Source of the DNA: Candidatus Heimdallarchaeota archaeon
Lineage (GTDB): Archaea; Asgardarchaeota; Heimdallarchaeia; Heimdallarchaeales; Heimdallarchaeaceae
DNA length: 64,000 nt
Assembly (NCBI GenBank): GCA_018238545.1
Contig: JABCTC010000010.1
Coordinates: forward strand, 29,890 to 93,889
Direction of reading: 5' to 3'
Under the pieces are notes generated by a model. It saw only the letters and a program-made list of their open reading frames with translations, ran no database searches and had not been told where the DNA came from. Numbering within the stretch: position 1 is the first letter of the stretch; each line of letters starts with the position of its first letter. Below, piece by piece: positions 32,638 to 38,347 of this stretch. A program made the position numbers and the translations under genes.

Positions 32638-34758
32638 ATGGAAGTAAGCAGGAAGAATAGAGTGAACAAAATACTATCAAATATCTTCTATTACTTATTT
32701 GTAGTTCTAATTTTCGGATTTCTTGGCTTATCGTTTTTCATTGATGAATTAGGGTTACTGTATGATATATTATTTGTTGCATTGATTGTAAACTCATTCG
32801 TAATTACCTTTTATCTCGCAATTCAGATGTTAAGGTATAATATCAAAGTAAACAAGAAGGTGCAGATCGGAATTTTCCTTATAGTACTAGGCTTTCTACT
32901 AATTCTTACTTCCTTAAGTAAAAGCATAACTTTCACTAGTGAATTACTATCAGAAATATTAACGTATGAATTCTTTGTTTATTGGGGAATAGGTTTTGTT
33001 TTGTTAGGCTTTCTTATAGAATTAACATTGTTTGATCAATGGTTTTGGGATAATCTTCTGGTTAAACCCGCCAAGAAGATTTTTAATGCAATCAAATCAT
33101 TTCTCTTGCTAATTCGAAAACATTGGAAAGGTATAATATTTGAATTACTTAGATTATTAGGGGTTGCTGGTGGAGTTGTATTAATCTACTTTGGTTACGT
33201 TTTACCTGAGTTCAATTGTTTCATATGGATAGGAATCCCTGTTATAATAGTAAGTGAAACACTTACAAGAAAATCAGTTTTAGTGTTTATTAAGAATACA
33301 ATTATCGCAATAGGAAAATCTGTCAAACGTTTGTTTGTGACCTTATGGAATAAAGCGAAAGAAGTGATAAAAAAGACTCTTGAATCTTTAAAAACATTCT
33401 TTTTTAATCTCTGGAAGTTCTTTAAAAATAATTATGTGACAATTCTACTTGAATTGGGGAGATTGATACTCGCAGGAGGAGGGGGCTACCTTATCTACTT
33501 TGGTTTAGTTGAAGAGTCATTTCGATATTTTATTATAATCGGATCTGGCATAATACTCCTTTTTGAAATAATATTGAGAAAATCTGTTCTCAGAATATTA
33601 TTTGAATATCTAAAAGCCTTAGGTCGATTATTCAGAGAACTTGGAATACTCTTCTGGAAACTACTAAAACTATTGTATCAGCCCTTTAAATTCTTAATTA
33701 GACACTGGGTAAAAGTAATTCTCTATACTTGTGATGTTGTAGCGATAGGTTCCATAGCAACCACAATTTATTTCACATTTAGTATACAATTCTATTGGTG
33801 GTATATTGTCATCCTATCAGCAAGCGGTGCTTACTTAATCATACATCATGCAAGAAGTATCTGGAAAGCGGTAAGATATGTGTTTGTAGATATATTTTAT
33901 GGAATTATAAAAGAGATATACTTACTAATTGAAAGATTCTTTACAACAATTGGCAGATTTCTCAATAAACATTGGAAAACAATTGTGAAAGAGCTAATTA
34001 GGTTAGTTTTTGTCGCAGGAGGAATATCACTAATTATTTTTGGTGATGAATTTGAACCAACTATAATAGGAACCGTTATGGTGTGGTCAGGAATAGTAAT
34101 AATCCCAATTAGTGCATTATTTTCAAGAGTTGTAGTTCTAAGGTTTATATGGAAATCAATTAAGAGCTTTTTTGCCAGTTTGAAGAATTTAATAGTTGAT
34201 GTTTATCATCTATTGATTAATTTCTTCAAGGAAATTGGCAGATTTATTAAGAAATATTTTGTGTGGTTGTTAAGAATTCTTGGATTAGTTTCTGTTATTT
34301 ATGGTGTGATAGTTTCTTTCTCAATTGGCTGGGGAGCATTATTAACAATACTTACAATCTCTATAGGTGGTTTCTTCCTAATCTTTGCAGATGCCATTAT
34401 GCATCCAGTAAAATTCTGGAAACTGATAAAACAAATTCCTAAGAGAATAAAACAAGTGTTTAAAATAATTTGGTTATCAATAAAATATCCTGTAACTTAT
34501 ATCGGAACTAATTTCTTAAGAATAATACTCCTATTAACAATGCTTTTTGCTTTAATATATGGAATAACCCTCATAATCTCACTCAATTTTCTACCAATTT
34601 TCGTAGATGATCCATATATAACTAGATTATCTGTTGGATGTGGGCTGGTAGTTGTAGCTATAGGGGCCTTTATACTATTACGCAGGGAAATAAAGAAACT
34701 CAGAACAGGTCAATCGAAAAAATGGCTCGAAGAAGTGAAGGAGGTTTGGAACAGATGA
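32638..34758 (+). CDS. Large membrane protein built of internal TM-hairpin/amphipathic-helix repeats
   Basis: Three clear copies of (K/N)(H/N)(W/Y)..I..EL.RL...AGG..LI.FG...R..VL plus weaker copies; ATGA overlap with the next gene. Confidence 0.75.
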   Translation: MEVSRKNRVNKILSNIFYYLFVVLIFGFLGLSFFIDELGLLYDILFVALIVNSFVITFYLAIQMLRYNIKVNKKVQIGIFLIVLGFLLILTSLSKSITFTSELLSEILTYEFFVYWGIGFVLLGFLIELTLFDQWFWDNLLVKPAKKIFNAIKSFLLLIRKHWKGIIFELLRLLGVAGGVVLIYFGYVLPEFNCFIWIGIPVIIVSETLTRKSVLVFIKNTIIAIGKSVKRLFVTLWNKAKEVIKKTLESLKTFFFNLWKFFKNNYVTILLELGRLILAGGGGYLIYFGLVEESFRYFIIIGSGIILLFEIILRKSVLRILFEYLKALGRLFRELGILFWKLLKLLYQPFKFLIRHWVKVILYTCDVVAIGSIATTIYFTFSIQFYWWYIVILSASGAYLIIHHARSIWKAVRYVFVDIFYGIIKEIYLLIERFFTTIGRFLNKHWKTIVKELIRLVFVAGGISLIIFGDEFEPTIIGTVMVWSGIVIIPISALFSRVVVLRFIWKSIKSFFASLKNLIVDVYHLLINFFKEIGRFIKKYFVWLLRILGLVSVIYGVIVSFSIGWGALLTILTISIGGFFLIFADAIMHPVKFWKLIKQIPKRIKQVFKIIWLSIKYPVTYIGTNFLRIILLLTMLFALIYGITLIISLNFLPIFVDDPYITRLSVGCGLVVVAIGAFILLRREIKKLRTGQSKKWLEEVKEVWNR

Positions 34759-36065
34759 AAGAAGAAAAACTAGATGATCTTGAGCATTTAGGACGAAATC
34801 CTGTTGTAACAACTCTCTGGATTGGTTTTGCAGTTTCTCTTCTGGGAATTTTAGGTATAACAATTCTCTCCGTATTTCTAGGACAAGGTATACAGGATAT
34901 GTATTTTCGGATTTCCTTAGGTGTTTTTGTTATTGGAGTTTTGATAATTTCATTTGCATTTATATTGAGAAGAATAAGAAAAAAGGGATTGGATTATTTT
35001 GTAGCAGGTGCAATTACAGCTTACATCGGATTTCTCTTATTAGCATTGCCAGTAATTTTAATAGCTATAATCTCTGAATTACCAGGATCCGATTATCTAT
35101 ACTTCATTACTATGGGTGTAGGCGTTTTGTTGGTTATTTTTGGTTTCCTCATGGAAGCTTATGAACTCAACAAAAAACTGATGGAATTTCTAAGAAGGAT
35201 AAAAATCACATTTGTCAAATTGATAAAGAGAATCAAATGGAAATTAATTTTTTCTCCTTGGAATCTTCTTACTTTGGTAGGGATAACCGTGATAGTTCTA
35301 ACAATTTTGAACATTATGCCCTTTTTGGATAATTTGTACTATTATATCATTGGTGGTTCTTTGATTGGTATAAATATTATTATCCACTTGAGAAGAGAAA
35401 TCTATGAGATTTTTAAAGATATAACTAGGGTGATATTGACAGTTATACGCGCGTGGGGAAGGGCTTTAAAACAAATTCCCAGAATCGTTAAGGAAGCAGT
35501 AGTTTGGATTTACAAGAAAACAGTAAGCTTGTTCAAATTGATAAGTAGAGCCTTCAAATACGTTGTAGTTAGAAACTATATCTTACTTTTTGGTTTAGGT
35601 ATTGCGCTATTTTTCCTCCTCCAAAACTTCACACTTCCATTACGCATTGCAATATCCTCTCTTGTATGTTTAGTTTCAATTGTGAAACCAGTTCTAGATT
35701 GGAGAGATTTCTCTGGTGAAAATATTAGTAGAGCTAGGCAATACCTATACAAAACATCACAAAGGACAAGAAGCGCTCTAAAGTATAGAAGAAATGTCCG
35801 ATGCCCTTATTGTTCTTTCCCTAATCCCTTTCTACGGAGGGAATGTTGGCAATGTAAAAAAGAAATTCCAAGATGCATGATTTGTAACAATGCAGTAGAA
35901 AAAGAGGAAACAGTAGCTATTTGTCCTAATTGTGAAAATATTTATCATGTAGATCACTTGAAAACATGGATAAGATTTAACGCAAAATGCCCAGTTTGCC
36001 ATAATGAGATAAAATCTATTACTACTGAGGTTTTTCAGCCTAAAGAGGATGACATAACAACTTAA
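34755..36065 (+). CDS. Multi-pass membrane protein with C-terminal zinc ribbon + RING finger (putative E3 ubiquitin ligase)
   Basis: About 8 TM; CPYC..CWQC..PRCMIC..CPNC...YHVDHLKTW..CPVC; ATG at 34755 overlaps the upstream TGA, with GAGGT at 34741. Confidence 0.8.
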   Translation: MKEEKLDDLEHLGRNPVVTTLWIGFAVSLLGILGITILSVFLGQGIQDMYFRISLGVFVIGVLIISFAFILRRIRKKGLDYFVAGAITAYIGFLLLALPVILIAIISELPGSDYLYFITMGVGVLLVIFGFLMEAYELNKKLMEFLRRIKITFVKLIKRIKWKLIFSPWNLLTLVGITVIVLTILNIMPFLDNLYYYIIGGSLIGINIIIHLRREIYEIFKDITRVILTVIRAWGRALKQIPRIVKEAVVWIYKKTVSLFKLISRAFKYVVVRNYILLFGLGIALFFLLQNFTLPLRIAISSLVCLVSIVKPVLDWRDFSGENISRARQYLYKTSQRTRSALKYRRNVRCPYCSFPNPFLRRECWQCKKEIPRCMICNNAVEKEETVAICPNCENIYHVDHLKTWIRFNAKCPVCHNEIKSITTEVFQPKEDDITT

Positions 36066-37200: not shown

Positions 37201-37243
37201 TATTCTACAAAATGTTTATTTGAAAGTAAGTTGATTATGGCTT

Positions 37244-38347
37244 ATGTCTGGATGGTTAATTTTTGGAATTGCATTATTAGTAACAGCTATATTTACACTA
37301 GCTGTTTCGATATCTGCTAGAAAAATAGATTTTGGGTCTAGAATGTTTAGAGATAAGCCCGATAGATCACAGATAACGTTTGGTGGAGTTGAACCTAAAA
37401 TTCGAAAATCAAAGGCAAAACGTTCTGCTCCTCCTCCCCCTCCTTCTCCTCTATCTTCTTTTGCTCCTTCAGTAACAGAAACTTCAACAGAACCTGTACC
37501 AAGAGCAAGAGCTGAAGAAGTAAAAATAAACGATGAGTGGGATGAAGCTGAGGATGAAGAATGGGATGAAACTGATATTGAAACGGATGAATTACCAGAT
37601 GATATTGAACTGGAGACATTACCAAGAAATATTGAGTCTCCTCACTACGTTTCTCCTAAATCATCTAGAGGCGAATTTGCAAAGAAGTCTGCTATTGAAC
37701 CACAAGAGTTACTAGATAAAGGAACTATAGAAATAATAGAAGAACAACCAACTCTTCACACAAGAGATTTATCTATACAACTCCCAAAAAACATGTGTCT
37801 AGATGAAGTTTTCAGATTGAGGATTACTCTATTAAAATCAGATGAATTCTCAAAAGATGTTTCAATAAAACAACTAGAATTATCAAAGAAAGAAGCAGAA
37901 TATTTCTCTCTGACTGCTGAAAAACTTGGTAAGGAAATTCTTGAAGCTACCACAAAGATAGAGGGGTTGGAACAAGGAAATTTAATAGTACGTCCAATAT
38001 CTACTAGCAATGTTGTTACAACAGCACCTACACAAAGAACTGTTTACTTTGATACTGAAGATGAAGAAATTGTTGTAGAGTTCTATCTCGTACCTAAAAG
38101 ATGGATACCTGACCCTATTAGTATTTTAAGGGTAGAATTTGAGCAAAATTATAAAATAGTTCGAACTATTGATCTGCCAATAAGAATCTATAAACGACAA
38201 TTTGAAGCATTTTTTGGTTTCAATATATCAAAATGGCATAAATATGCTTTGCTTATTTATGGTATAATTAGCACATTGATAGGATTATACAGTACTTTGG
38301 CTGAATATATTGGCATTCTCCCTTCAATCGGAGACCTATTCAGCTAA
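37244..38347 (+). CDS. Membrane protein with N- and C-terminal TM, polyproline and acidic Trp-containing linker, and a beta-rich domain
   Basis: APPPPPSP; DEWDEAEDEEWDE; alternating beta pattern in the C-terminal half. Confidence 0.7.
   Translation: MSGWLIFGIALLVTAIFTLAVSISARKIDFGSRMFRDKPDRSQITFGGVEPKIRKSKAKRSAPPPPPSPLSSFAPSVTETSTEPVPRARAEEVKINDEWDEAEDEEWDETDIETDELPDDIELETLPRNIESPHYVSPKSSRGEFAKKSAIEPQELLDKGTIEIIEEQPTLHTRDLSIQLPKNMCLDEVFRLRITLLKSDEFSKDVSIKQLELSKKEAEYFSLTAEKLGKEILEATTKIEGLEQGNLIVRPISTSNVVTTAPTQRTVYFDTEDEEIVVEFYLVPKRWIPDPISILRVEFEQNYKIVRTIDLPIRIYKRQFEAFFGFNISKWHKYALLIYGIISTLIGLYSTLAEYIGILPSIGDLFS

Follow-up and report, generated by a model that had tools for sequence, protein, structure and literature searches.

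Here, we analysed the genes at positions 32638-38347 of a stretch of archaeal DNA (Candidatus Heimdallarchaeota archaeon; 64,000 nucleotides, nt; hereafter the window), which sits on contig C109 of a 3.6-Mb genome that is 92% complete. The interval is filled by four open reading frames (ORFs), all on the + strand, encoding proteins that we designate A (706 amino acids, aa), B (436 aa), C (327 aa) and D (367 aa). A and B are paralogous membrane proteins whose genes are translationally coupled and paired throughout one order, and B ends in a zinc ribbon followed by a RING finger. The interval probably consists of three independent units that were joined in one genus of the Heimdallarchaeaceae: the A-B pair, a candidate RING ubiquitin ligase (E3); C, a soluble SPFH protein; and D, a bitopic membrane protein.

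A sequence-only reading of this DNA had described four co-oriented genes, an ATGA overlap coupling the first two, an architecture of transmembrane (TM) hairpins and basic helices common to A and B, a zinc ribbon and RING at the end of B, an SPFH protein with zinc ribbons that is YdjI-like rather than erlin-like (C), a 121-bp gap before and a T-tract after the SPFH gene, and a membrane protein with polyproline and acidic stretches (D); each of these descriptions is upheld by the data given below. Its interpretation, a four-gene platform resembling endoplasmic reticulum-associated degradation (ERAD), survives as a membrane RING E3 candidate pair but not with the SPFH protein and D as partners. 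A same-strand run of four genes is not remarkable alone; only the coupling of A to B goes beyond mere proximity.

Relatives are labelled by family (f1, f2, f3, f4 and f6), by genus within the window's family (g1-g5) and by genome (G001 and so forth). For A-B, synteny was examined in about 20 genomes of the same genus and in genera g2, g3 and g5; the order-level set comprised eight A-B loci (families f2 and f3) and six SPFH loci (families f3, f4 and f6).

A coupled pair of paralogous membrane proteins

Gene A (positions 32638..34758, + strand) encodes a polytopic membrane protein formed by repeats of a basic amphipathic helix and a TM hairpin. Three clear copies of a repeat of about 95 aa are present (aa 132-225, 234-328 and 417-510; positions 33031..34167, +), and a hidden Markov model built from them gave domain E-values of 6e-36 to 1e-43; about three additional, degenerate copies lie between and after the clear ones. 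The orthologs of A have three to five repeat copies and a length of 500-900 aa; the C-terminal third of A (aa 450-706) is conserved. A is devoid of Zn motifs and matched no Pfam or NCBIfam family; likewise, no NCBIfam family was matched by B, C or D.

The end of gene A overlaps the beginning of gene B (34755..36065, +). At the coupling site (34740..34758, +), a GGAGG sequence inside A (34740-34744), which serves as an internal Shine-Dalgarno motif, is located 11-15 nt upstream of the ATG of B (34755-34757), which in turn overlaps the TGA of A (34756-34758), forming the ATGA. B has about eight TM helices, arranged as four hairpins, followed by the C-terminal zinc ribbon and RING. In an AlphaFold 2 (AF2) model of the protein (mean predicted local distance difference test score, pLDDT, 80.5), surface helices are formed by aa 136-166 and 213-272, and the zinc domains are borne by a stalk helix of about 50 residues (aa 294-345). 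Comparison of the A and B profiles with hhalign gave a probability of 94.7% and an E-value of 5.9e-8 over 160 columns; thus, A and B are distant paralogs.

Wherever the DNA upstream of B is present, the gene immediately before B is A-like. This holds in the about 20 genomes of the same genus, in g2, g3 and g5, and in the eight f2/f3 loci, and in most of them the junction is a stop/start overlap of 1-4 nt. The upstream A-type proteins of family f1 and of families f2/f3 are homologous (hhalign probability 97%, E 1.1e-10). In a search across 300 genomes of the phylum, full-length B was restricted to one order, where it occurs in families f1 (genus g4 excepted), f2 and f3, and in a set of 1.84 billion proteins its membrane domain has no more than 26 representative relatives. 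A published description of such a membrane RING pair was not found in the literature searched. In family f3 the pair adjoins chemotaxis-type genes, coding for CheC, CheD, a protein with a CheA P2 domain and a response regulator, in several genera (L067, L069, L070, L072, L073 and L074); a link to ubiquitin or to proteolysis was not found among the genes that flank A-B in other families, which include che genes, peptidases and hydrolases.

The RING finger of B and the ubiquitin genes of the genome

The zinc-binding part of B is formed by a C4 ribbon (C350, C353, C364 and C367, CxxC-x10-CxxC; positions 35802..35855, +) and a variant of the RING-H2 finger (35874..35999, +), with ligands C374, C377, C390, C393, H398, H401, C412 and C415 in the spacing C-x2-C-x12-C-x2-C-x4-H-x2-H-x10-C-x2-C. 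Judged on 25 homologs, with identities down to 19%, all 12 metal ligands (four Cys in the ribbon and eight residues in the RING) are invariant or nearly so, the ribbon Cys being invariant and the RING pattern invariant or at least 90% conserved. The positions that contact the ubiquitin-conjugating enzyme (E2) are also conserved (20-25 homologs): position 376, after C1 and Ile in the window's B, is Ile or Val, W405, after ligand 6, is invariant, P413, after C7, is kept in at least 90%, and position 416, after C8, is His, Lys or Arg. When the RING profile of B was compared with the PDB, the best match was RNF165/Arkadia (E 5e-9), followed by RLIM, RNF38, EL5, synoviolin (E 1.4e-5) and AMFR (E 2e-4). 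The RING predicted by AF2 shows the cross-brace fold and superposes on the RING of RNF165 with a root-mean-square deviation (rmsd) of 1.8-1.9 Å over 49 residues (Foldseek probability 1.0), and a match to zf-RING_2 (PF13639) is precomputed for most orthologs of B.

Two archaeal RING ligases provide a close parallel. The srfp protein of Caldiarchaeum subterraneum and a Helarchaeial RING E3 function with eukaryotic-type ubiquitin-activating enzyme (E1), E2 and ubiquitin (PMC5654768; bioRxiv 10.1101/2023.07.25.550441), and both, like B, are of the RING-H2 class, have C3/H4 out of register and carry an additional Cys. The ligand shift of srfp, an active ligase, is similar to that of B, and mutagenesis has shown that I30, W58 and R69 of srfp are needed for activity (PMC5654768); the equivalent residues, an Ile after C1, a Trp and a basic residue after C8, are all retained in B. 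However, the genes of srfp and the Helarchaeial E3 lie in ubiquitin operons and their products are small and soluble, whereas B has eight TM helices, is encoded away from ubiquitin genes and is coupled to a paralog.

Ubiquitin, E1 and E2, whose presence in the genome was checked, were all found, together with a JAB protease. Contig C21 carries the gene for ubiquitin (L083:4278-4511), then that for a ThiF-type E1 (L083:4652-5665), then that for a UEV-Vps23-Vps28 fusion; contig C114 carries an operon for a ubiquitin-like protein (Ubl), JAB and E2; and contig C71 codes for a stand-alone UbcH5-like E2, bringing the E2s of the genome to two. The Ubl-JAB-E2 operon also encodes a 368-aa protein with six TM helices and the same RING variant (L082:5782-6885), which matches the tail of B with an hhalign probability of 93% (E 2.6e-7) and is, from its sequence, a second candidate membrane RING ligase of this genome. 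Because the same variant sits in this operon, the RING type of B is tied to ubiquitin genes by context. Prediction of a complex of the B tail with the UbcH5-like E2 (P0033) and three Zn ions gave a score of 0.00, which bears neither way on binding.

Several observations weigh against a ligase function of B. The residue at the canonical fourth ligand, a His, is Asn in B, and a spare Cys (C390) is found three residues upstream of C3; this extra Cys is presumed to stand in for the missing His-4. The residue after the last RING Cys is His in the window's B and Lys or Arg in most homologs. Against PF13639, the window's B scores 27.1 bits, 0.2 bits short of the cut-off of 27.3. The A-B pair adjoins no ubiquitin gene. 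Finally, the ribbon and RING resemble the non-catalytic tails of subunits of intraflagellar transport complex A (IFT-A) and of GATOR2: profile positions 9-84 match, as one unit, the C-terminal domains of IFT144/WDR19 (E 2.5e-7), IFT122, WDR24, MIOS and WDR59 (E 4e-5), and the tail of B superposes on that of IFT-A (8fh3_C) with an rmsd of 2.7 Å over 84 columns (Foldseek probability 1.0).

The latter similarity raises the alternative that the ribbon and RING are a structural assembly module, in the style of IFT-A and GATOR2, and that A and B form a membrane-shaping or scaffolding complex with no ligase activity. A scaffold would be consistent with the shortness of the hairpins, with surface helices that are long and basic and with the varying number of repeats, and also with the location of the pair outside any ubiquitin operon. 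Yet the RING part of B is nearer to active RING-H2 ligases (the RNF165 match) than to the IFT-A and GATOR2 tails, and in comparison with those tails it keeps all of the ligands and the four residues (Ile, Trp, Pro and a basic one) that contact E2; A has no RING, so that a RING-RING junction could not form; and the same variant occurs in the Ubl-E2-JAB operon of the same genome. Moreover, unlike the IFT-A and GATOR2 subunits, B is without a propeller or solenoid, its N-terminal 345 residues consisting of TM and surface helices. We consider a purely structural role unlikely, and regard B, as judged from its sequence, as a credible candidate for a membrane-embedded RING E3 coupled to a related membrane protein.

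The cassette of ribbon and RING is spread over many architectures in the Asgard genomes searched. For instance, contig C7 of the same genome (L081:3051-5123) encodes a 691-aa protein with winged-helix/PCI-like repeats and a ribbon and RING tail, and relatives of this protein, 690-700 aa long, were found throughout the searched genomes of the class.

The SPFH gene and gene D beside the pair

Gene C (36187..37170, +), located 121 bp downstream of B, encodes a protein with a Band_7_1 SPFH domain at aa 17-211 (PF13421; E 3.7e-21, 76.2 bits, cut-off 24) and two C-terminal zinc ribbons at aa 271-327. No hydrophobic segment or TM helix was detected in its sequence, and a sequence search of the PDB gave no match. 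C is conserved to the level of the class, with 45-57% identity, far more widely than A-B. The protein most like it is YdjI/SamI of Bacillus subtilis, which also combines a Band_7_1 SPFH domain with a C-terminal zinc finger and has no membrane anchor, and which is brought to the membrane by YdjG/H (PMC8581546; PMC13713150). In contrast to the ydjI operon, which includes PspA and two membrane recruiters, no PspA (PF04012) was detected in the genome of C, which is 92% complete, and no conserved operon with a membrane-protein partner was found for C, whose neighbours differ between families.

Gene C appears to be transcribed on its own. The region ahead of it (36119..36180, +) holds a promoter-like TTTAAAAG box (36119-36126), a leader of the form AACC..GGTT (36152-36164) and a GAGGT sequence (36176-36180). 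In an alignment of 150 nt of upstream DNA, the box reads TAC(C/A)TTTAAAAG and lies about 70 nt before the ATG of C; box and leader are kept in the genomes of the same genus that were examined, regardless of which gene is upstream, and outside the genus only a TTTAAAA box is kept (g2, g4 and g5). In those same-genus genomes the leader reads TTAGAACC..GGTTA. Since it folds no better than shuffled sequence (z 0.42), any role of the leader would be sequence-specific. The gene is followed by a T-rich tract (37171..37215, +), which from its sequence is likely to be an archaeal terminator.

SPFH erlins (Erlin1/2) scaffold the membrane RING ligase RNF170, and the side-by-side position of an SPFH gene and a membrane RING gene in the window is the likeness behind the platform that the sequence-only reading proposed, in which A-D jointly would act in an ERAD-like manner. 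In seven genomes of the same genus, C directly adjoins B in the same orientation, and in five more the two are 1.8-2.8 kb apart; C, lacking a TM helix, would need a membrane receptor, as YdjI needs YdjG/H (PMC8581546). A hint of some relationship between B and C, and one that speaks against their full independence, comes from a subclade of the genus (G005, G007, G011, G017 and G023) in which B has a C-terminal extension, absent from the window's B (example in G011, L051:4149-5699; proteins P0019 and P0021). The end of the extension, a zinc ribbon, resembles part of the SPFH protein encoded next to it, namely its linker and first ribbon, with 27 of 43 residues identical (63%, E 9e-15); it looks like a domain copy between neighbouring genes, and may reflect either recombination between neighbours or a shared docking function.

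The adjacency, however, is confined to one genus. Even there, a glycosyltransferase gene (GT2) on the opposite strand separates B from C in G001, G015 and G022; in g2, g3 and g5 the two genes are on different contigs, with other neighbours; and in g4, both closed genomes contain C and lack a full-length B. No SPFH gene was found near the eight order-level A-B loci, and no B near the six SPFH loci. Outside the genus, C adjoins homologs of the window genes at 24445-28629, and its position next to A-B is therefore a genus-level rearrangement. Thus, of the adjacency expected in relatives, the A-B half is kept order-wide and the SPFH half is absent beyond the genus. C is also not erlin-like, it has its own TATA box, leader and trailing T-tract, and its class-wide conservation differs from the order-wide range of A-B. 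Because C and D are separately transcribed neighbours, the four-gene platform does not hold, and we judge a joint ERAD-like function of A-D highly improbable.

Gene D (37244..38347, +) encodes a protein with a TM helix at each end (aa 2-27 and 330-358) which, in the AF2 model, flank a variable disordered linker (aa 28-168) and an immunoglobulin (Ig)-like beta sandwich (aa 172-316). A structure search with VIA-align returned only generic Ig/MG-like matches, with Z of about 8. The polyproline and acidic DEW stretches sit in the linker, which is not conserved among orthologs, and a WASP-like reading of these stretches was rejected for this reason. In one ortholog (G012, L063:2898-4142) a zinc ribbon is inserted in the linker.

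With its two TM helices, D might serve as the membrane receptor of C, which needs an anchor, in the way that YdjG/H serve YdjI, and in g1, g2 and g3 D is indeed found downstream of C, at a distance between 70 bp and about 3 kb. Against such a C-D pair, genes on the opposite strand usually intervene and a T-tract follows C; D lies 10 kb from C in G004, shows no linkage to it in either closed g4 genome and is on a different contig in g5. Further, searches with D as the query (E<=1e-5) did not find it outside the family, in contrast to the class-wide C, and PspA was not found in the genome. We regard D as the receptor of C as decidedly improbable; more probably, C is a separate SPFH protein of the YdjI/SamI type, soluble and served by a promoter and terminator of its own, and D is a membrane protein that is bitopic and carries an Ig-like domain.

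In families f3/f4, two tandem genes accompany the SPFH gene (L075:7729-9758, L076:4053-6132 and L080:3232-5300); they code for proteins of about 340 aa, both of which have two TM helices and, at the N terminus, a zinc ribbon. These proteins are possible YdjG-like recruiters; they were rejected as homologs of D (hhalign probability about 1%). In locus L077 of family f6, a ThiF/E1-like gene (4822-5814; PF00899, E 2.5e-60) is divergently paired with the SPFH gene, and a gene of like size, strand and CxxC count occupies this position in L078 (4592-5596) and L079 (4879-5880). Downstream of D, at 39734-40925 of the window, a gene for a Gfo/Idh/MocA-like oxidoreductase is broken into four ORFs; a single intact gene of 374 aa is found in G001 and G015, and the split reflects either a pseudogene or a fault in the assembly.

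A candidate membrane ubiquitin ligase

In layout, B is similar to Hrd1/synoviolin and gp78/AMFR, in which about eight TM helices are also followed by a cytoplasmic finger of the RING-H2 type. The similarity of the membrane part is one of layout: a VIA-align search with the whole model of B placed Hrd1 at Z 8.7 and an rmsd of 5.8 Å over 115 residues, among unrelated helical bundles and within the noise of such folds, and a Foldseek search with the model of B gave no match to the membrane domain. Moreover, B differs from Hrd1 and gp78 in its additional zinc ribbon, in the shift of its fourth ligand and in having a RING-less paralog as its partner.

We propose that A and B, as products of a translationally coupled operon of paralogs, most likely form one membrane complex. 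The finger of B, on its long cytoplasmic stalk, would probably recruit a charged E2, either the UbcH5-like enzyme or that of the Ubl-JAB-E2 operon, and would pass ubiquitin to proteins in or associated with the membrane, or to A-B itself. A, with its variable array of hairpins and surface helices, would be a RING-less scaffold or a partner facing the substrate. A bolder version, which we offer tentatively and regard as doubtful, is that A-B represents a ubiquitin ligase complex embedded in a prokaryotic membrane and is, in function, a precursor or a counterpart of the polytopic ligases of the eukaryotic endoplasmic reticulum; the complex would mark membrane proteins for extraction by Cdc48 and the proteasome or for sorting by the ESCRT machinery; A would then shape or sense the membrane, and in the subclade whose B acquired a ribbon, B may also cooperate with the SPFH protein.

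Tagging of membrane proteins with ubiquitin, as in ERAD and endosomal sorting, is held to be a eukaryotic trait, and the archaeal RING ligases studied to date are small soluble proteins. The negative result for C matters in this context, as the SPFH link that gave the four genes their ERAD-like look stems from synteny at the level of a genus. In the archaea nearest to eukaryotes, a membrane-embedded RING protein that is conserved together with, and coupled to, its paralog would make membrane ubiquitination before eukaryogenesis directly testable with the E1, E2 and ubiquitin of the same genome.

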